Part shown: piece after piece, positions 13,935-55,223 of the stretch
Numbering within the stretch: position 1 is the stretch's first letter
Layout: every line of letters starts with the position of its first letter
NCBI GenBank assembly: GCA_031459385.1
Contig: JAVKIP010000002.1
Location: 96,355 to 160,354 of the forward strand
Direction of reading: 5' to 3'
DNA length: 64,000 nt
From: Candidatus Fervidifonticultor secundus
GTDB lineage: Bacteria; Sysuimicrobiota; Sysuimicrobiia; Sysuimicrobiales; Humicultoraceae
The notes under the pieces: model-generated
What the model was told of the DNA's origin: nothing
Database searches by the model: none
What the model saw: only the letters and a program-made list of their open reading frames with translations
Translations under genes and position numbers: made by a program

Positions 13935-16196
13935 ATGGCGCGCTCTGCCTATCGCGGCGCACGCATCAAGCGGCTGGAAGATCCACGGCTCCTTACGGGG
14001 CACGGGACGTACACCGGCGATCTCACCGCGCCGGGGCTTGGGTACGTGGCGATGGTGCGTAGCCCCCTGGCGCACGCTCGGGTGCGCGGCATCCGTGCGC
14101 CGGCGGGTATCGCGGTGATCACGGCGCGCGACATCCCTGACCTGCCCCACCTGACCGGAGAGATCAAGGGCGGTGCCGTCGTGCGGCACCCGGTGCTCGC
14201 CATCGACCGGGTGTGCTACGTGGGGCAGCCGGTAGCGATAGTGGTGGCGGACGATCCCCACGCGGCAGCCGACGCCGCGGAGCGCGTCGAGGTGGACTAC
14301 GAGGCCCTGCCGGTCCTGGCAGACCCGGAGGAGGCCCTGGCGTCGGGCGCCCGTGCCATCCACGACGGGCTCACATCCAACGTCGCCTACCGGCGGTACC
14401 GCAAGTGCGGCGACCCCGACGCCGCCTTCGCCGGCGCACCGGTGGTTGTCAGGCAGCGCATCAGGCACCAGCGCCTGGCGGCCGTCCCGCTGGAGCCCCG
14501 CGCGGTGCTGGCTGTGCCGCCGTCGGGCCGACGGTCGCGGCGCCTGACCGTCTGGTCGTCCACCCAGATGCCGCACGACCTAGGGGGGCTGCTGGCGGCG
14601 TTGCCCCACCTCGCGGGCCTGCGGATCAGGGTCATTGCGCCGGACGTGGGCGGCGGCTTCGGCGCCAAGATCAACATCTATCCCGAGGAGCTCCTCGTCC
14701 CGATCCTGGCGGTGCGCCTCGGGCGTCCCCTGAAGTGGGTGCAGACGCGCCGCGAGGACCTGCTGGCCACCAGCCACGGCCGGGCCCAGTTCGCCGATGT
14801 GGAGCTGGCCGCGGACCGCGACGGGCGCGTCCGGGGACTGCGGATGCGGATCGTCGCCGACGTGGGCGCCTACATGCTCTCCACCACCGCCGAGGTGCCC
14901 ACGCTGACAGCGCCCATGGCCTCCGGTCCCTACCACATCACGGACGCCGAGATCGAGCTGGTGGAAGTCTACACGAACCGGATGCCGACGGGCGCGTACC
15001 GCGGCGCGGGGCGGCCGGAGGCCGCGTTCTACCTTGAACGGATGCTGGATCTGCTCGCCCGCGATGTCGGCCTGGACCCTGCAGAGGTGCGGCGGCGGAA
15101 CTTCATACCGCCGGACCGGTTCCCGTACCGGAACGTCTCGGGGTACGTCTACGATAGCGGCGACTACGCCCGGGCCCTCGACCGCGCCCTGGACGCCGCA
15201 GACTATGCCGGATGGCGGGCGCGGCAGGCCGAGGGTCGGCAGCAGGGACGGTATCTGGGCATCGGCATCGCCAGCTACGTGGAGTGGTGCACCTACGGCG
15301 AGGACCGCGTGCGCGTGGAGGTGGACGCGGCCGGCATGATCACGGTCTTTACCGGCATCTCGCCGCACGGGCAGGGTACCGCCACCGGGCTGGCGCAGGT
15401 CGTAGCCGACGTGCTGGGCGCGCCGCTCGAGGCCGTGACGGTGGTGCACGGCGACACCGGGCGGGTCCCCCGGGGCGAGGGAACCGCCGGCAGCCGGTCG
15501 CTGGTCGTGGGCGGGACCGCCGCCTACCGTGCGTCGCAGAGCCTCCGCCGGAAGCTCCTGGCGCTGGCAGCGGCGCGCCTTGAGGCCCGCGTGGAGGATC
15601 TGGTTCTGGCCGACGGCCGTATCCACGTCGCCGGGACTCCCGAGCGCGGCCTGACCGTGGGAGGGCTGGTCGCCGATACCGGCCGGGGCCGGCTGTGGGC
15701 GCGCGGCGCATTCGACGCTGGTGACGCCACCTTCCCGTTCGGCACCCACGTGGCCGTCGTGGAGATCGATCCCGACACCGGGCAGGTCCGGCTGCTCCAG
15801 TACGTCGCGGTCGACGACTGCGGGGTCGTCATCAACCCGCTCCTGGTAGATGGGCAGATCCACGGCGGTGTGACGCAAGGTCTGGCCCAGGCGCTCTACG
15901 AGGATCTCGTCTATGACGGCGCGGGACAGCTGGTGACGGCGTCCCTGGCCGACTATGCCGTGCCACGGGCGCCCATGGTGCCCCGCGTCCAGGCCTACCG
16001 CACGGAGACGCCGACTCCCCGCAATCCTCTCGGCGCGAAGGGCGTGGGGGAAGCCGGCACGATCGGCGCCGCACCGGCCGTGGTGAACGCGGTCATGGAT
16101 GCCCTGGCGCCGTGGGGTGTGCGTCATCTGGACATGCCGCTGTGGCCTGGCACGATCTGGCGCGCGCTCCACGCGGCCCGGCGCGGCACGGTCTAG
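13935..16196 (+). CDS. Xanthine dehydrogenase-family molybdopterin-binding subunit (CoxL form II-like)
   Basis: EDPRLLTG, DVGGGFGAK, AYRGAGRPE, HGQG, GQIHGG, KGVGEAG. Confidence 0.9.
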   Translation: MARSAYRGARIKRLEDPRLLTGHGTYTGDLTAPGLGYVAMVRSPLAHARVRGIRAPAGIAVITARDIPDLPHLTGEIKGGAVVRHPVLAIDRVCYVGQPVAIVVADDPHAAADAAERVEVDYEALPVLADPEEALASGARAIHDGLTSNVAYRRYRKCGDPDAAFAGAPVVVRQRIRHQRLAAVPLEPRAVLAVPPSGRRSRRLTVWSSTQMPHDLGGLLAALPHLAGLRIRVIAPDVGGGFGAKINIYPEELLVPILAVRLGRPLKWVQTRREDLLATSHGRAQFADVELAADRDGRVRGLRMRIVADVGAYMLSTTAEVPTLTAPMASGPYHITDAEIELVEVYTNRMPTGAYRGAGRPEAAFYLERMLDLLARDVGLDPAEVRRRNFIPPDRFPYRNVSGYVYDSGDYARALDRALDAADYAGWRARQAEGRQQGRYLGIGIASYVEWCTYGEDRVRVEVDAAGMITVFTGISPHGQGTATGLAQVVADVLGAPLEAVTVVHGDTGRVPRGEGTAGSRSLVVGGTAAYRASQSLRRKLLALAAARLEARVEDLVLADGRIHVAGTPERGLTVGGLVADTGRGRLWARGAFDAGDATFPFGTHVAVVEIDPDTGQVRLLQYVAVDDCGVVINPLLVDGQIHGGVTQGLAQALYEDLVYDGAGQLVTASLADYAVPRAPMVPRVQAYRTETPTPRNPLGAKGVGEAGTIGAAPAVVNAVMDALAPWGVRHLDMPLWPGTIWRALHAARRGTV

Positions 16197-18817
16197 CGGC
16201 CCGTCGCGCGCCCTGCCCAGGTGATGCGGCGCTGGAGGCGCGTGAGCGCCGCAGGCAGGTCGATGGCCCCGCGGAGCACCAGGGCCATCGGGTCGGCGAT
16301 GGCCGCGAAGCGCTTCGGCACCGTGGCCAGGGTGAACCGCGCCGGATCCAGGCGCCTGGTGACCTCGGACCAGCGCAGCGGGCAGGAAGCCGGCGCCCCG
16401 GGGGTGGGGCGGAGCGAGAACGGCGCCACGATGGTCCGACCGGGGCCGTTCTGCCCGAAGTCGATGTAGACTCGGCCGCCGCGGGCCTCCAGGGGCCGGG
16501 CCACCGTCGCGATCGCCGGTGCTACCTCCACGGCAAGCAACGCCAGCAGCCGGCCGAAGGTGCGTGCTTCCTCGTAGGTGTACCGGGCGCCGAGCGGCAC
16601 CAGGACGTGCAGGCCGCTGCCCCCGGACGTCTTCACGTAGTGTGAGAGGTGCATCTCCTCGAGGAGGCGATGCAGGACGCGCGCCACCGCCACGCAGTCC
16701 GCGAAGGGCGCGTCCTTGGGGTCGAGGTCCAGCACGAGCCAGTCAGGCCGCTCCAGGCTGCCAAGGCGCGACGCCCAGATGTGGAGCGGAATCGTGCCGA
16801 GGTTGGCGACGTAGCGCAGGGTCTCCACGTCGTTCACGATGAAGTAGTTGATCTCCCGCTCGGCGTCCGTGGAGTAGATCCGCTCGGTGCGTACCCACGC
16901 CGGCACGAAGGCCGGCGCATCCTTCTGAAAGAACGCCTTTCCGGCGATGCCGTCAGGGTAGCGCGTGAGCACCACAGGCCGGTTCTGGAGATACGGCAGG
17001 AGGACGTGGGCGACGGCCTCATAGTAGGCGATCAGGTCGCCCTTGGTGTAGCCCTCCTGTGGCCAGAAGACCTTGGTCGCGTTCGTGATGCGTACCCGCG
17101 GCAGCGCGGTCGGTCCCCGCACGCGACCGACGGCGCCCGCGCCGGCTGGCGCCTCCGCCGCCCGCGGCGGAGGCGCAGACTCGGAGACCTCGCGCCGGCA
17201 CTCTTCGGGCCTGCGGTCCGGGCGCAGTCCGAGGAACACCGGATGCCGCAGCCCGCCGTCCTGCGTCCACTCCGCGAAGCGCACCTCGCAGACCAGGCGC
17301 GGCTCCACCCACCGGTGCCCGCGTCCGGCCGGCGTGCCGACCTCGAACGGCGACGTGGGGCGCGCCAGCGGCCGCAGCGCGTCCCACACTCGGGTCAGCG
17401 CGGCATCGTCGAACCCCGCCCCGACCTTCGAGATGTAGACCAGGCGGCCGTCGTCGTACAGGCCGAGGTGGAGCGCGCCGAAGCAGCTCCGGGAGCCCCG
17501 CGGTTGGGTGTACCCGCCGATGACGAACTCCTGGCGCTGCTGGCACTTGACCTTCACCCAGTCGCGCGACCGCCCGGCCGCGTAGGCACTCGCGGCGCGC
17601 TTGGCCACGATCCCTTCCAGGCGCTGCTCCGCGACCAGCTCATAGAACGCCTCGCCGTGCTCCGCGACATGGTCGCCATAACGCACCACGCCCAGCGGGG
17701 GCACCACCAGGCGCAGGCACGCCTTCCGCACCACCAGTGGCAGGCGGCGGAGGTCGTGCCCCTCGAGCGCCAGACAGTCGAAGAAGATGCCCGCGACCGG
17801 CTGGGTGTGCAGCGCGGCCGCCACGTCGGCCGGCCGCCGCAACAGCATGCGGGCCTGGAGACGCTGGAAGCTCGGGTGCCCATGTTCGTCGAAGGCCACG
17901 ATCTCGCCGTCCAAGACGAAGCGCTGCACGGGGAGCAGGCGCAACGCCCGCACGATCTCCGGGTAGCGGCCGCTCACCGCCTGGCCGCTACGCCCGACCA
18001 GCTCCACCGCCTCACCCCGCCGCTCGGCCAGCACCCGCACGCCGTCGTACTTCACCTCGAAGATCCAGTCGGGGCGCGAGAACGGACGCGCGGCCGCGGT
18101 GGCCAGCATGAACTCCTGGGTCCTGGCCGACACCTCCCCGCGCGGTGCCCGGGCCATCCGCAGCTGTGTCGCGATGGCCTGCAGGCGCACCGAAGGGTCG
18201 CGCATCTCCTCCACCGTCAGCCCCGAGCGCACCGAGTGCGGGTACCGGGCGGTCAGTTCCTCGCCGCCGCTGCCGGGGCCGGCCTTCTTGATCAGCAGCC
18301 AGTCCCGTTCCGACCTCGCCATGCGGACCAGCATCCAGTGGCCGCGCAGCTTGTACCCGAAGAGCTCGACCTCGAGCCGGCCGCGCGCCAGGTGCGCCAG
18401 TGGATCGCCCGGCGTGACGAGGCGGTACGTCCCGGCATCCCAGACGATGACCGCGCCAGCCCCGTAGTTGCCCGGCGGGATGACCCCCTCGAACTCGGCG
18501 TACTCCACCGGGTGGTCCTCCACGTGCACCGCCAGGCGCTTCTCTTCCGGTTTCACCGACGGGCCGTGGGGGACGGCCCAGCTCTTCAGCACGCCGCCCA
18601 TCTCCAGGCGGAAGTCGTAGTGGAGGCGGCGGGCCGCGTGCTGCTGGACGACGAACCGCGGCGGGCCGGCACCGTGGAGTCCTTCGAACGGTTCGGGCGT
18701 CTGTTCGGGATCGCGCTTGCGCCGGTAGACGGCGAGCGGTCCCTCCGAGGGCGCGGCTGATCGTCCCGGCACCCCAGCCGGCCCGGGGGCGCGGGCTTGA
18801 GCACGCCGGGGCTTCAT
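16193..18817 (-). CDS. ligD: NHEJ DNA ligase D (phosphoesterase-ligase-polymerase order); start uncertain
   Basis: PE domain FVVQQHAARRLHYDFRLE; ligase FEVKYDG, EGIVAK, WVKVK; polymerase domain TNATKVFWP..TKGDL, DLDP, KTSG. Confidence 0.93.
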   Translation of the reverse strand: MKPRRAQARAPGPAGVPGRSAAPSEGPLAVYRRKRDPEQTPEPFEGLHGAGPPRFVVQQHAARRLHYDFRLEMGGVLKSWAVPHGPSVKPEEKRLAVHVEDHPVEYAEFEGVIPPGNYGAGAVIVWDAGTYRLVTPGDPLAHLARGRLEVELFGYKLRGHWMLVRMARSERDWLLIKKAGPGSGGEELTARYPHSVRSGLTVEEMRDPSVRLQAIATQLRMARAPRGEVSARTQEFMLATAAARPFSRPDWIFEVKYDGVRVLAERRGEAVELVGRSGQAVSGRYPEIVRALRLLPVQRFVLDGEIVAFDEHGHPSFQRLQARMLLRRPADVAAALHTQPVAGIFFDCLALEGHDLRRLPLVVRKACLRLVVPPLGVVRYGDHVAEHGEAFYELVAEQRLEGIVAKRAASAYAAGRSRDWVKVKCQQRQEFVIGGYTQPRGSRSCFGALHLGLYDDGRLVYISKVGAGFDDAALTRVWDALRPLARPTSPFEVGTPAGRGHRWVEPRLVCEVRFAEWTQDGGLRHPVFLGLRPDRRPEECRREVSESAPPPRAAEAPAGAGAVGRVRGPTALPRVRITNATKVFWPQEGYTKGDLIAYYEAVAHVLLPYLQNRPVVLTRYPDGIAGKAFFQKDAPAFVPAWVRTERIYSTDAEREINYFIVNDVETLRYVANLGTIPLHIWASRLGSLERPDWLVLDLDPKDAPFADCVAVARVLHRLLEEMHLSHYVKTSGGSGLHVLVPLGARYTYEEARTFGRLLALLAVEVAPAIATVARPLEARGGRVYIDFGQNGPGRTIVAPFSLRPTPGAPASCPLRWSEVTRRLDPARFTLATVPKRFAAIADPMALVLRGAIDLPAALTRLQRRITWAGRATGR

Positions 18818-18861
18818 GCTATCGTACGAGACACCTTTCGGTGCCTCCGGGGGAACCGCCG

Positions 18862-19719
18862 ATGCCACCGCATGCGATCGGTTCCGGGACGATCTCGTTC
18901 GGGCTCGTCGCCATTCCGATCAAACTCTACACTGCCACTGCGCCAGGGGGAATCCGGTTCAACATGCTCCATGCCCGCTGCGGGACCCGTGTCCGGCAGC
19001 AGTACGTCTGCCCCGTAGACCAGGTGGTCGTGGACCGCGCCGAGATCGTCAAGGGCTACGAGTACGCCAAGGACCAATACGTGCAGGTGACCGACGAGGA
19101 GCTGAAGGCGCTAGAGGGCGACGCATCCCGCGTGATCGACATCGCCGAGTTCGTGCCGCTACCGCACGTGGACCCGATCTACTTCGAGAAGACCTACTAC
19201 CTGGGGCCCGACAAGGGCGGCGAGAAGGCGTACCGGCTCCTGGCAGACGCCATGGTCAAGACGAACCGCGTGGCGCTCGCGACGTTCGTCATGCACGGGA
19301 AAGAGAGCCTGGTGTTGATCCGGGCAGCTCAGGGCGGGCTCATGCTGCACACGATGTACTTCGCCGACGAGGTGCGCAGCTTCAAGGAAATCGGCCGCAG
19401 CGAAGACGTCAAAGTCAGGGACGGCGAGTTGCAGCTGGCGGTCAAGCTCATCGACGAACTGGCGACGGATGGGTTCGCGCCCGAGAAGTACCGGGACGAG
19501 TACCGGCTCCGTGTCCTCGACCTCATCAACACCAAAGTGGCGGGCAAGGAGGTCACGCCGGTGGGCCCGCAGGTACAGCGCGCCCAAGTGATCGATCTCA
19601 TGGAGGCGCTGAAGAAGAGCCTGGAGACGCGCATGTCGCGAGAGAGGAAGCCGGCCGCGCGGGCTCGGCGCCCAGCGGCGGCGCCTGCGGCGGGGAGGGC
19701 GCGGGCTGCCAGGAAATGA
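18862..19719 (+). CDS. ku: NHEJ DNA end-binding protein Ku
   Basis: GTISFGLVAIPIKLY, IVKGYE, DPIYFEKTYYL, YRDEY, VIDLMEALKKS, basic C-terminal tail. Confidence 0.95.
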   Translation: MPPHAIGSGTISFGLVAIPIKLYTATAPGGIRFNMLHARCGTRVRQQYVCPVDQVVVDRAEIVKGYEYAKDQYVQVTDEELKALEGDASRVIDIAEFVPLPHVDPIYFEKTYYLGPDKGGEKAYRLLADAMVKTNRVALATFVMHGKESLVLIRAAQGGLMLHTMYFADEVRSFKEIGRSEDVKVRDGELQLAVKLIDELATDGFAPEKYRDEYRLRVLDLINTKVAGKEVTPVGPQVQRAQVIDLMEALKKSLETRMSRERKPAARARRPAAAPAAGRARAARK

Positions 19720-23075: not shown

Positions 23076-23104
23076 TTGCGCGTGCGCCACCCGGAGGCTA
23101 TGCT
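23076..23104 (+). promoter_or_regulatory. Putative sigma70 promoter for the riboswitch leader
   Basis: TTGCGC(23076)-17 bp-TATGCT(23099). Confidence 0.55.
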
Positions 23105-23123
23105 GGAAACAGCACCGAGAGGC

Positions 23124-23269
23124 CGCAGCCTTCCGGGGCAGGGTGAGACGCTGGATGACGGCGTCAATTCCCGATCGGCGGTAACAGCCCGTGAGACCGG
23201 CGCGGAGCCGGTCGTGGCCCGGTGGAACTCCGGGGCCGACGGTAGAGTCCGTATGAGGTGAAGGCTGCG
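23124..23269 (+). ncRNA. FMN (RFN)-class riboswitch aptamer, variant
   Basis: P1 CGCAGCCTTC/GAAGGCTGCG encloses GGGGCAGGGTGA..AATTCCCGATCGGCGGT..AGCCCGTGA..CCCGGTGGAACTCCGGGGCCGACGGTAGAGTCCGTATG, matching RFN architecture. Confidence 0.88.
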
Positions 23270-23298
23270 AGGTCCTGGCGCGTTCGCACCGCCCCGGG

Positions 23299-23328
23299 GG
23301 ACGCCCGAGTTCGGGCGTCTTTTGCTTT
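23299..23328 (+). terminator. Intrinsic terminator (riboswitch expression platform)
   Basis: GACGCCCGA-GT-TCGGGCGTC followed by TTTTGCTTT, located before the RBS and ATG 23348. Confidence 0.8.
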
Positions 23329-23347
23329 GCGCCAGAAGGAGCCGACG

Positions 23348-24487
23348 ATGGTGGCTGGTACGCGTCGCACGACCGCCCTCCTGCTGGCGGGCCTCGGCCT
23401 GCTGTTGGCCCTCCCCCGGCCGGCGCCCGGCCAGGCGCTGGAAGATCGGCTGGTCGTGATGACCCCCATCCCGCGCGAGGTCGCCGATACCGTGGCCGAC
23501 CGCTTCGCCGAGCACGCGCGGCAGCGGTACGGCGCGCCCCTGCGGCCGACGCTGGTGTTCCTGGGCGGTCCCACGATGTATGCCCGCGTCCTGGAGTGGC
23601 GCGGCCGCCCTGATGCCGATCTGCTGTGGGCCAGCGAGGCTGAGGTGCTGGACGACCTCGTCAACCGTCGGCTCCTCGTCCTCCACGAGCTGCCCGAGGC
23701 GCTGGTTCGGGACGTCCCGCAGGCGATCGGCGGGCCCCGGGCGATCCCGTTGCGCGACGGTCGCGGCTACTGGATCGGGACCGCCCTGACGCCCGCTGGC
23801 ATCGTGTACCACCCACGGCTGCTGCGGCGCCTGGGCCTCGATCCGCCGCACGACTGGGACGACCTGCTCGACTGCCGCCTGCGAGGCCAGGTCGTGCAGA
23901 CCACGCCCGACCGCTCCGCGACGAACCACAGCTCGCTCGAGGTGATCCTGCAGCTCCGCGGCTGGCAGCGCGGGTGGGAGTGGGCCCAGCGGCTGGCCGC
24001 GACGACCGGCATCTACGTCACTCGTAGCCGCGACGTGCCGACGTTCGTGGCGCGCGGCGAGTTCGCCGTGGGCTTCGCCGTGCTCAGCTACATGGCGTTC
24101 CAGGAGGTGCTCGGCGGCCACGATATCCGCTTCGTGAGCCCGCCCTACGCCTGGATCTCGCCGGCGCCGTCTGCCGTGCTGGCCGGTGCCCGGTCGCCGC
24201 GTGCCGCCCGCGCGTTCCTGCAGTTCCTCCTCAGTGACGAAGGGCAGCGGCTCATGATGGCTCACGGGCTGTTTCCGATCGTGCCGCGCTTCAAGATGGA
24301 GGGCCCACCCGGGTCCGTCGCCGCGCAGGCCGCGACGTTCGCCGGCATGCGGTCGTTCTTCGACCGGCCCGTCCGGACGATCTACGACGACGACCTGGCG
24401 CAGAAGCGCTACCAGGAGGTGAATGAGCTCTACCGCAAGCTCGTCTTCGAGCGACACGACCAGCTGAAGCGGCTGCACTGTCCCTGA
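23348..24487 (+). CDS. ABC solute-binding protein (Fe3+/thiamine/polyamine-type fold), no transporter genes adjacent
   Basis: Signal peptide; PDADLLW, WDDLLD, PDRSAT, VARGEFAVG, ARAFLQFLLSDEGQ; RBS AAGGAG. Confidence 0.85.
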   Translation: MVAGTRRTTALLLAGLGLLLALPRPAPGQALEDRLVVMTPIPREVADTVADRFAEHARQRYGAPLRPTLVFLGGPTMYARVLEWRGRPDADLLWASEAEVLDDLVNRRLLVLHELPEALVRDVPQAIGGPRAIPLRDGRGYWIGTALTPAGIVYHPRLLRRLGLDPPHDWDDLLDCRLRGQVVQTTPDRSATNHSSLEVILQLRGWQRGWEWAQRLAATTGIYVTRSRDVPTFVARGEFAVGFAVLSYMAFQEVLGGHDIRFVSPPYAWISPAPSAVLAGARSPRAARAFLQFLLSDEGQRLMMAHGLFPIVPRFKMEGPPGSVAAQAATFAGMRSFFDRPVRTIYDDDLAQKRYQEVNELYRKLVFERHDQLKRLHCP

Positions 24488-24499
24488 GACCGTCGCGCA

Positions 24500-24537
24500 C
24501 GGCAGAGGCTGGACATGCCTCTGCCGGTGACTATAAT
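24500..24537 (+). promoter_or_regulatory. Hairpin (possible terminator) overlapping the tRNA-Lys promoter
   Basis: CGGCAGAGGC/GCCTCTGCCG inverted repeat with TGGACA (-35) in the loop; TATAAT at 24532. Confidence 0.6.
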
Positions 24538-24551
24538 GTGAACCGGAACGA

Positions 24552-24627
<76 letters not shown>

Positions 24628-24833: not shown

Positions 24834-26039
24834 GTGGCCCTGCCGAGGTTGCGTCCGGCCCTGGATGCGTATCCCGTCCGCCTGAACGGGCGCGACCTGA
24901 TCGCGGTCCGTGATCCCGAAGGTGTAGCCGAGAAGCCGGTACTGCTGTCGCCGCAGACCTTCTTTGTCGCGCTTCTGCTCGACGGCACCCGCGACGTCCT
25001 GGACGTGCAGGCGGAGTACGCACGTCGGTCAGGCGGCACCCTGCTGTTCTCCTGGGACCTTCAGCGCATCGTCGAGGACCTCGACCGTCACGGGCTCTTG
25101 GAGAGCGAGACGTTGCGCGCCCGCCGCGAGGCTATCGACCGGGAGTTCCGGGCATCACCCGTTCGGGCGCCGTTCCACGCCGGCACGGCCTATCCGGCGG
25201 AGGCCGGCGCACTGCGCCGGATACTGGCAGAGTACCTGGCCGGTGTGGCACAGGACGAGCTGGCCAACCTTGAGCCCCGCGGTATCGTCGCGCCGCACAT
25301 CGACCTGGCCCGCGGCGGCTGGTGCTACGGCTGGGCGTACGCAGCACTGGCCCGCCGCCTGCCCCAGACCTGCTTCCTGCTCGGCGTCGCCCACAGCGCG
25401 CCGCCGGCGCCGGTCGTCCTCACCACCAAGCCGTTTGTGACGCCCCTGGGGGCGATCCCGGTGGACCATGAAGCTGTGGCGCAGCTCCAGGATCGGCTCG
25501 GTGACCTCACGGTTCACGAGGTCATCCATCGGACCGAGCACTCGCTGGAGTTCCAGGTGCTCTTCCTGCAGGCGATCGGGCAGGATCGGCCGCCGGCGAT
25601 CGTCCCGCTCCTGGTCTCCCCGCTGGAGCAGTGGGTTCCGGCGGGGGAGTCGCCCCGACGGGTCGATGTGGTGGAGCGCGTGATCCAGGCGCTCCGGGAT
25701 GTGGCCACCGCCCGCTCCGGCGCAAGTGCGGTGGTCGCCGCTGTGGACTTCAGCCATGTCGGCCCCCGGTTTGGCGACGCCGAGCCGCCCTCGGTGGCGC
25801 TGGCCGCACGGACCTCGGCCCGCGACCGGGAGGTCCTCGAAGCCATCATCCTGGGTGACGCTGAGGCCTTCTGGGCGTCGGTCACCGCCGGCGGCAACCC
25901 CCAGCGGATCGACGCCCTGTCAGCGGTCTACGTCACCCTGCGGGTCCTCGAACCGGTGCGCGGGCGACTGCTGCGGTACGGGACCGCCGAGGACCCTGCG
26001 GGAGGGATCGTCTCGTTCGCCAGCCTGGCCCTGCTGTGA
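24834..26039 (+). CDS. MEMO1-family protein (AmmeMemoRadiSam protein B) with N-terminal extension
   Basis: HAGTAYP, APHID, LGVAH, TPLG, EHSLEFQ, DFSHVGPRFGD, VSFAS. Confidence 0.85.
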   Translation: MALPRLRPALDAYPVRLNGRDLIAVRDPEGVAEKPVLLSPQTFFVALLLDGTRDVLDVQAEYARRSGGTLLFSWDLQRIVEDLDRHGLLESETLRARREAIDREFRASPVRAPFHAGTAYPAEAGALRRILAEYLAGVAQDELANLEPRGIVAPHIDLARGGWCYGWAYAALARRLPQTCFLLGVAHSAPPAPVVLTTKPFVTPLGAIPVDHEAVAQLQDRLGDLTVHEVIHRTEHSLEFQVLFLQAIGQDRPPAIVPLLVSPLEQWVPAGESPRRVDVVERVIQALRDVATARSGASAVVAAVDFSHVGPRFGDAEPPSVALAARTSARDREVLEAIILGDAEAFWASVTAGGNPQRIDALSAVYVTLRVLEPVRGRLLRYGTAEDPAGGIVSFASLALL

Positions 26040-55127: not shown

Positions 55128-55223
55128 TGGCGGAGGGCCCTGGGAATCGAACCCAGCCCGGACCGAGCAGGCCCAGCGACCGGTTTTGAAGACCGGGGCC
55201 CGCACCAGCGGACACTGCCCTCC
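55128..55223 (-). tRNA. selC: tRNA-Sec(TCA)
   Basis: GGAGGGCA.., 6-bp D-stem GTCCGC/GCGGGC, anticodon arm CCGGT-CT TCA AA-ACCGG, long variable arm, GCCA end; near selAB; promoter TTGCGT-17-TACAAT upstream. Confidence 0.93.

Follow-up and report, generated by a model that had tools for sequence, protein, structure and literature searches.

The flavin mononucleotide (FMN) riboswitch (Rfam RF00050; structure 3F2Q from Fusobacterium nucleatum) is the closest described relative of an RNA element present in a 64,000-nucleotide stretch of DNA from Candidatus Fervidifonticultor secundus (assembly GCA_031459385.1, contig JAVKIP010000002.1, positions 96,355 to 160,354; hereafter the window), where it forms the leader at 23125-23328 on the + strand of a gene for an orphan solute-binding protein. 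According to the published work, the phosphate of FMN is held by G10, G11, G32, G62 and G84 (PMC7573352; PMC6298564), a Mg2+ ion on N7 of G33 bridges to this phosphate (PMC3201879), and the G98-A85 pair serves as the floor under the isoalloxazine ring (bioRxiv 10.1101/389148). The window leader shares with the canonical riboswitch its six-helix fold, a kept core and a terminator-type expression platform. It differs in carrying U98, a J6/1 junction reading UAUGAGGU, an extra nucleotide in J1/2, G63 (34 of 37 variant copies) and a fixed G33-U46 pair, and in this lineage the variant never precedes rib or RibU genes. The leader is best explained as a riboswitch of a conserved variant class descended from the FMN fold, controlling the supply of vitamin B6 and not flavin metabolism.

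Variants of the FMN fold have been described before. Subtypes 1 and 2 of Atilho, Perkins and Breaker (2019, PMC6298564) are likewise FMN-fold RNAs whose changed gene associations were read as altered ligand specificity; in these, the guanines contacting the phosphate and ribityl chain have become mostly A, the flavin contacts are kept, FMN is rejected, and the genes controlled in Clostridium and Atopobium encode COG3601, major facilitator superfamily (MFS, EmrB-type) or MATE (multidrug and toxic compound extrusion, NorM-type) transporters. The class in the window is the reverse, with the phosphate site kept as G, the flavin floor changed and B6 genes controlled. That it might be an Atilho-type variant was considered and rejected, as all phosphate-contact guanines remain G; moreover, no COG3601, EmrB-type MFS or NorM-type MATE gene was seen among the genes downstream of the variant aptamers, and the terms pyridox, pdx and G98 do not occur in the text of PMC6298564.

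Two further systems resemble the locus in its gene context. An RF00050-type element lies before yaaDE (pdxST), the pyridoxal 5'-phosphate (PLP) synthase genes, in Thermaerobacter marianensis, where it was left unexplained in the survey of Gutierrez-Preciado et al. (2015, PMC4418817); it belongs to another phylum, the comparison is with its published description and not its sequence, and no Thermaerobacter record was among the matches of our strict U98 genome pattern. In Deinococci, the monocistronic ribY of the RibXY system (PMC4418817) is, as in the window, a lone ATP-binding cassette (ABC) binding-protein gene behind an RF00050-type riboswitch. That RibY, however, binds flavin, belongs to COG0715 (NMT1/TauA-like) and is controlled by a canonical FMN riboswitch, whereas the window has another protein family and the variant riboswitch. 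PLP itself, together with heme and lipoic acid, is listed in a 2022 review from Breaker's group (PMC10043782) among the near-universal coenzymes for which no riboswitch has been validated, and the review asks whether this gap has an evolutionary reason. No report of a PLP riboswitch was found in the openly accessible literature that was searched by title and phrase.

A conserved variant of the FMN aptamer

The aptamer was identified by cmscan of the window, by alignment against canonical copies and by covariation. RF00050 matched at 23125-23268 (+) over the full model (1-138) and scored 70.0 bits (E 8.4e-14; gathering score 66.2), in agreement with the RFN-like fold proposed in a first-pass annotation of this DNA. 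Helix P1 is formed by 23125-33 with 23260-68. With position numbers in the style of 3F2Q, which are our own mapping counted along the Rfam consensus from G84/A85, the kept parts of the core are J1/2 GGGGC (23135-39), G62 (23216), G84 (23238), A85 (23239) and A99 (23253), and the changed parts are the extra J1/2 nucleotide C (23134), U46 (23192), G63 (23217), U98 (23252) and J6/1 (23252-59), which is one nucleotide longer than the canonical GAUGGGA. The substitutions that the annotation had listed are all present, namely AUCGG at 23174-78, CGUGA at 23190-94, GG at 23216-17, GUAUG at 23251-55 and the altered J6/1. Their reading as an altered core held in part: AUCGG (C30U) was discarded as a mark of the variant, being present in 11 of the 34 canonical copies of the lineage, and CGUGA (C46U), fixed in the variant, only replaces a G-C pair by G-U.

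Aligned with its relatives, the window aptamer proved to be one of a uniform set. J1/2 GGGGC (G10-G12), C31-G84, G32-C83, G33, A48, G62, A85 and A99 are kept in 37/37 aligned variants, and the reported phosphate guanines G10, G11, G32, G62 and G84 are thus all unchanged. Position 98, canonically G, is U in all 37 sequences of this alignment (A1), for which it was the sorting criterion; pairing of A85 with U98 is possible in every one, and RNAalifold predicts the corresponding extension of P6. G63 occurs in 34 variants, the other three reading GGGA, while the closing pair of P3 is G33-U46 in all 37 and G-C in 33 of 34 canonical copies, the last of which missed the motif. Most variants also carry an extra pyrimidine between P1 and GGGGC, and in most C82 is replaced by U. 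Since the phosphate guanines are kept and G98, J6/1, J4/5 and the P3 closing pair are changed, the variant would appear to retain the phosphate half of the pocket and to alter its aromatic half. Bit score was tried and abandoned as a marker of the class: many members fall under the RF00050 gathering score (43.5-65.8 bits), and canonical copies of family f5 with long insertions overlap them (41.7-64.7 bits).

The six-helix fold itself is well supported across 37 distinct relatives, in which 98.0% of the cells are paired and 19 of 37 pairs have changed on both sides. The covariation score was 0.301 against 0.105 in shuffles, on all five measures every one of 500 shuffles fell short of the observed value, and slid registers gave 36-56% of cells paired. 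Covariation on this number of distinct copies argues that the element is not decaying, and the substitutions, which the first-pass annotation had wished to see checked in relatives, recur at the same positions in orthologous leaders. Orthologues of the binding protein (65-88% identity) are present in 16 other genomes of the same family, and an RF00050 match lies just upstream in 14 of the 16 orthologous loci scanned; each of these 14 leaders differs from the two canonical copies of the window's genome at the same positions. The two loci without a match are one that begins within the gene and that of genome G005. In the latter (L019, G005:C4) a deletion has removed two-thirds of the aptamer at its 5' end, P1 5' strand to P4 inclusive, leaving 26.6 bits to RF00050, and a -10-like TATGCT is joined directly to J4/5-P5-P6-J6/1 and the terminator in front of the binding-protein orthologue.

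The window's genome (3.3 Mb, 97.6% complete, 5.5% contamination) holds three RF00050 matches. The other two score 87.2 and 86.3 bits and lie before ribD-ribE-...-ribH operons; these two complete-looking rib operons, each with its canonical FMN riboswitch (C8:10088-10243 and C46:3630-3776), represent either a real duplication or a mixed bin. A search of the genome collection with a pattern made of U98 and the conserved P5-J5/6-P6 frame returned 36 stretches, 35 of them in related metagenome-assembled genomes (MAGs) and one in a Lachnospiraceae MAG. The 35 are titled Ca. Fervidifonticultor, Calidihabitans, Geohabitans, Nitrosymbiomonas, Armatimonadota/Armatimonadetes bacterium, or simply 'bacterium'; NCBI places Ca. 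Fervidifonticultor in Ca. Sysuimicrobiota, and MAGs of this phylum are often labelled Armatimonadota. A shorter U98 pattern matched in 35 of 94 genomes of the phylum, and its reversed control in none of the same 94. By family, matches were found in 18 of 33 genomes of f1 (plus the window's genome) and 16 of 22 of f2, with none in f4 (0/23), f5 (0/12) or f3, f6 and f7 (0/1 each). In scans made with U98 patterns, the variant class is thus confined to two families of one phylum. Two genomes flagged as unpublished, G010 and G019, are included in some of our tallies (G019 supplies one of the 14 positive leaders), and dropping both alters no conclusion.

Gene associations and the link to vitamin B6

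RF00050 matches were present in 57 of 61 related genomes. Of the 91 resulting rows all 50 under 80 bits were examined, plus 15 of the 41 above 83 bits, so that the canonical set is a partial sample. Unique aptamers were sorted by nucleotide 98 alone, and the genes downstream were assigned by tblastn against references. Among 39 unique U98 aptamers, 14 precede the binding protein found in the window, 14 an energy-coupling factor (ECF) S-component of PF07155 followed by a gene resembling aminoimidazole ribonucleotide (AIR) synthase, and eight pdxS(-pdxT), while two run into a contig end and one, the Lachnospiraceae copy (L073), precedes ribD-ribE. Among 34 unique G98 aptamers, 21 precede ribD-ribE, seven a RibU-like gene and six other genes, three of which were checked with Pfam and are PF12822 ECF S-components; no U98 aptamer precedes a gene of these last two kinds, and no G98 aptamer runs into a contig end. 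Within the lineage, therefore, rib and RibU-like genes are absent behind all 38 U98 aptamers, and B6 genes behind all 34 G98 aptamers. On representatives, Pfam and NCBIfam confirmed PdxS (517 bits, cut-off 395), PdxT (family SNO) and the S-component (PF07155, 121-148 bits). The split is present inside single genomes: in several (e.g. G049 and G052) a canonical copy stands before a RibU-like gene and variant copies stand before both pdxST and the PF07155 unit.

Scanning metagenomes with a U98 pattern gave the same picture. Of 49 loci, 28 have the ECF S-component, 13 PdxS and five the binding protein downstream; one was too short, and two gave no match; by eye, pdxS has a frameshift at its start in one of these (L180), and the start of ECF-S has diverged in the other (L175). 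No rib gene was found downstream at any of the 49 loci, whose aptamers comprise 27 that are new and unique and 12 duplicates of the genome set.

PdxST is the synthase of PLP. The only characterised prokaryotic B6 transporters given in a 2023 survey are PdxU, PdxU2/HmpT (COG4720, PF07155) and P5PA (COG1840, PF13531) (PMC9997740). The two transporter families behind the variant are those of this survey, and together with a synthase that makes PLP they point to vitamin B6. The first-pass annotation had proposed a changed ligand, either a flavin derivative or another cofactor, and of these the second has become the best reading, narrowed to vitamin B6 by gene associations unlike those of the canonical copies that these genomes also carry. 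A derivative of flavin is unlikely, given that separate flavin genes stand under canonical riboswitches and the variant at B6 genes. Nor was the proposal of an unrecognised flavin uptake protein supported, as canonical FMN riboswitches in these genomes stand before a separate RibU-like transporter or rib operons, and the other targets of the variant are pdxST and an S-component of the PdxU/HmpT family.

A B6 link that is independent of the riboswitch is found in family f5, where at the four loci fetched a PF07155 gene and the AIR-synthase-like gene lie immediately upstream of pdxS; at these four loci there was no Rfam match at E up to 1. In the window's genome (completeness as above) neither PdxS nor PdxJ was found, nor a close homologue of the PF07155 S-component of the class, only a 28-bit PF07155 fragment. 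Among f1 genomes, 16 of 17 with an orthologue of the binding protein show no PdxS, and five of six with PdxS have a U98-type aptamer directly upstream of it; coming from kin and incomplete MAGs, this pattern is suggestive and not a statistical test.

The AIR-synthase-family protein (some 335-345 residues) follows the PF07155 S-component behind the variant riboswitch (L067:3156-4193 and homologues), and in f5 (L198-L201) it is encoded between the S-component and pdxS. Its NCBIfam matches, HypE-like (106.9 bits) and ThiL-like (99.7 bits), are both far under their cut-offs. Alternative B6 kinases are still to be found and bacterial B6 transport is an open problem, according to the 2023 survey (PMC9997740), and the AIR-synthase-like protein is a candidate for a missing alternative kinase of B6 salvage.

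The protein encoded behind the window leader belongs to the solute-binding families that the first-pass annotation had named only by fold. It matches SBP_bac_11, 6, 1 and 8 (PF13531, PF13343, PF01547 and PF13416; PF13531 with 63.7 bits), and a sequence search of the PDB gave as best solved relatives P5PA of Actinobacillus pleuropneumoniae (6WCE, E 2.8e-15), which is also of PF13531, and then AfuA (4R72, E 3.6e-12). P5PA, whose ligand is PLP (PMC8427247), resembles the window protein further in being without an ATPase of its own, AfuC having been cloned with P5PAB (PMC8427247). The window protein differs in being distant from P5PA, in not sharing its ring contacts, in lacking an adjacent permease, in belonging to another phylum and in being RNA-controlled. 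In the HMMER alignment, which is of low identity, S147-G148-T149 of P5PA align with Ser-Ala-Thr and S183 with Ser; T37 aligns with Gly, a Thr following two residues later. The sugar-binding His/Asp pair of AfuA is absent, and Ser190 and Ser227 of the window protein are invariant in 18 homologues. An AlphaFold2 model from the 18-sequence alignment (mean predicted local distance difference test score 58.2, predicted template modelling score 0.54) was too poor for fold comparison. On sequence grounds, we take the protein to be an AfuA/P5PA-like binder of phosphorylated ligands and a predicted PLP binder.

Some 37 kb upstream on the same contig lies a paralogous operon (C12:82170-86985 of the genome; L041:5792-10630), which encodes a binding protein 58% identical to that in the window, an ABC ATPase with a TOBE domain, a 574-residue fused double permease and a NagD-type haloacid dehalogenase (HAD) phosphatase. 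Its permease and ATPase, as the nearest candidate partner, are probably the translocator for the orphan binding protein. A glycerol-3-phosphate-oxidase-like gene adjoins the operon on the opposite strand.

Expression platform, ligand and competing explanations

The unit in the window is compact. The intrinsic terminator at 23299..23328 (+) consists of a GC-rich hairpin, GGACGCCCG, loop AGUU and CGGGCGUC(U), followed by the U-run UUUUGCUUU; it was not reported by the terminator scan of the window, and it was present in all RNAfold folds that were run. It is enclosed by an outer helix, CUGGCGC 23275-81 with GCGCCAG 23329-35 in RNAfold, whose arms co-vary in relatives, e.g. CCGGCGC/GCGCCGG in L014 (by eye, uncounted). 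An AAGGAG ribosome-binding site (23336..23341, read from the sequence) stands 6 nt before the ATG of the binding-protein gene (23348..24487, +; 379 residues in translation, with an N-terminal signal-like segment). Upstream, a promoter-like site was read by eye at 23076..23104, with -35 TTGCGC (23076-81), a 17-nt spacer and -10 TATGCT (23099-104); the pair is under the threshold of the promoter scan, and most of the 39 leaders, when inspected by eye, have -35-like TTGAC/TTGC and -10-like TAnnnT hexamers upstream. Directly after the gene lies a tRNA gene (24552..24624, +; RF00005, 65.5 bits) with its own strong promoter (24510-24537, 11/12 positions matched), so that the binding protein forms a one-gene unit with neither permease nor ATPase and the description of it as an orphan was borne out. 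A tRNA gene is found 3' of the binding-protein gene in all 14 orthologous loci that extend past it; 15 loci held the whole gene, and L024 ends too soon.

At 23113..23133 lies a conserved 5' leader, GCACCGAGAGGCC, which with the P1 5' strand could form a small hairpin (23119-23 with 23128-32); RNAfold predicts this hairpin from 22 nt of upstream sequence plus 10 nt of P1. The leader element co-changes with the P1 strand in relatives (GAAGAC/GUCUUC vs GAAGGCU/AGCCUUC, by eye), and its GCACCGA(A/G)GGC is a repeat of the P1 3' strand sequence. By eye, the lineage's canonical FMN copies show no comparable conserved leader on their 5' side. A spacer GCCCC is complementary to GGGGC of J1/2 and pairs with it in some folds; the complementarity is imperfect in some leaders and shows no clear competition with the terminator. 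This spacer, the outer helix and the GCACCGAAGGC-like 5' leader may all be part of the switching.

The terminator stem, GACGCCCG with CGGGCGUC, and its U-run are nearly letter-identical behind variants in all three gene contexts. The motif was found in 34 of 36 variant leaders with enough downstream sequence, and the other two are comparable by eye. Conservation across contexts leads us to expect control by transcription termination and, the targets being genes of synthesis and uptake, an OFF switch responding to an end product. That the end product sensed is a phosphorylated B6 compound, PLP, is the explanation that we moderately favour, from the genes controlled. Taken by itself, the statement that the ligand is some B6 vitamer is quite probable, and that it is PLP in particular is rather likelier true than false.

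In the mechanism that we propose, PLP or another phosphorylated B6 vitamer, when plentiful in the cell, would bind the aptamer with its phosphate in the retained site of guanines and Mg2+ and its small pyridine ring in the pocket remodelled by U98 (pairable with A85), the longer J6/1, G63 and G33-U46. P1 would thereby be stabilised, the conserved terminator would act, and the uptake gene would be turned off. The binding protein, when made, would pass PLP on to the paralogous operon's permease and ATPase. The aptamer would then be a retooled one, its phosphate and Mg2+ site kept and its flavin slot rebuilt for a single pyridine ring.

A number of observations weigh against sensing of PLP. PLP is assigned as the candidate ligand from gene context. 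The Y103 and H203 ring contacts of P5PA are not kept and align with Ala and Ser, in a part of the alignment that is of low confidence. Between ring and phosphate, PLP has a linker of one carbon and FMN a ribityl chain of five, and with linkers of different length the phosphate and stacking sites could not both be used without a real rearrangement. All reported direct contacts to FMN (G10, G11, G32, G62, G84, A48, A85 and A99) are kept, so that FMN may still bind, and G63 is not universal. L073 (2433-2549), an otherwise canonical FMN riboswitch before ribD-ribE in the Lachnospiraceae MAG, has U98 and a J6/1, UAUGAGA, that begins much as in the variant; it keeps the canonical J4/5 and P3 and has neither the extra nucleotide nor the other variant traits. 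As it is linked to rib genes, an A85-U98 floor is compatible with a rib-linked riboswitch, and U98 alone is no proof of new specificity. RNAfold found no antiterminator in seven leaders, whether P1 was enforced, blocked or forced to pair upstream, and the terminator forms in thermodynamic folds whether or not P1 is allowed; with a terminator in every state, the direction and mode of control are inferred. ThiT genes are often found 3' of the PF07155 ECF-S units. Finally, the collection scans used U98 patterns and the groups were defined by nucleotide 98, so that members without U98 could not appear, and related genomes are non-independent samples.

The strongest competitor is that the variant is still an FMN sensor, a structural flavour of the lineage that was frozen after duplication, with B6 genes brought under flavin control by chance. 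In its favour, the RF00050 gathering score is passed, the direct contacts are retained as described, L073 outside the lineage tolerates U98, and the T. marianensis match at yaaDE was treated as FMN-type in the 2015 survey (PMC4418817). It is difficult to reconcile, however, with the strict split of gene associations within the same genomes, or with changes lining the pocket that have been fixed beside canonical copies across two families. Furthermore, we know of no reason why PdxST or PLP uptake should be repressed by FMN. We therefore regard continued FMN sensing as unlikely, while giving it appreciable weight.

Only slightly less weight falls to a B6-related ligand other than PLP, which could be pyridoxine 5'-phosphate (PNP), pyridoxamine 5'-phosphate (PMP), an unphosphorylated vitamer (pyridoxal, pyridoxamine) or a metabolite derived from PLP or belonging to its pathway. 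The same set of B6 genes makes up the regulon in this case, and vitamers are indistinguishable by gene context. PF07155 transporters carry unphosphorylated vitamers, the substrate of HmpT being presumably pyridoxamine. HmpT substrates are verified according to the 2023 survey (PMC9997740). Against an unphosphorylated compound, the invariant phosphate-contact guanines argue for a phosphorylated ligand, and PLP is what PdxST makes directly and what P5PA binds (PMC8427247). For these reasons a vitamer other than PLP is, in our judgement, improbable.

A thiamine-pathway ligand, hydroxymethylpyrimidine phosphate or diphosphate (HMP-P, HMP-PP), would make the ECF S-component an HmpT and the AIR-synthase-like gene a ThiL relative, and draws on the ThiL-like match (99.7 bits) of the gene that follows the S-component, often with ThiT after it. 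That match is well under its cut-off of 184, with HypE scoring higher, and neither pdxST nor the P5PA-like protein has a role in thiamine metabolism; in f5 the pair of ECF-S and AIR-synthase-like genes lies immediately upstream of pdxS. At the one locus checked, ThiT has a weak match of its own to the thiamine pyrophosphate (TPP) riboswitch directly before it (L067:4269-4391; 31 bits, E 0.0016, gathering score 54.3), which may be a divergent TPP riboswitch. A thiamine ligand is thus very improbable. Least probable of all is a decaying or non-functional remnant of an FMN riboswitch, which the score near the cut-off and the truncated copy of G005 might suggest, and which is contradicted by the covariation of the 37 copies and by a core and terminator that are invariant across three gene contexts.

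Neighbouring features and implications

Three further loci of the window stand apart from the riboswitch. A Memo-family protein of 401 residues is encoded at 24834-26039, its Pfam match beginning at residue 113. At 16193-19719 a LigD gene on the - strand, with ligase, phosphoesterase and primase-polymerase domains, adjoins a Ku gene on the + strand, the two being a non-homologous end-joining pair. A selenocysteine tRNA (RF01852, 64.5 bits) lies at 55132-55223 on the - strand.

Taken in full, our proposal is that the variant is the first natural PLP riboswitch class, a retooled FMN aptamer, and that its regulon suggests two B6 functions not yet assigned, one being an orphan binding protein that imports PLP outside Pasteurellaceae and the other an AIR-synthase-like enzyme that may be a missing salvage kinase; we hold this combined statement to be slightly better than evenly balanced. 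The class is testable, being short (~140 nt) and well defined, and its genomes also carry canonical sister copies that can serve as internal controls. If the proposal is true, the variant would be the long-missing natural RNA sensor of pyridoxal phosphate. It would also be the mirror of the Clostridium FMN variants, in which the phosphate site is changed and the flavin site kept, and together the two would show one fold diversifying. For the poorly known phylum in which the class resides, it would annotate the uptake of vitamin B6.

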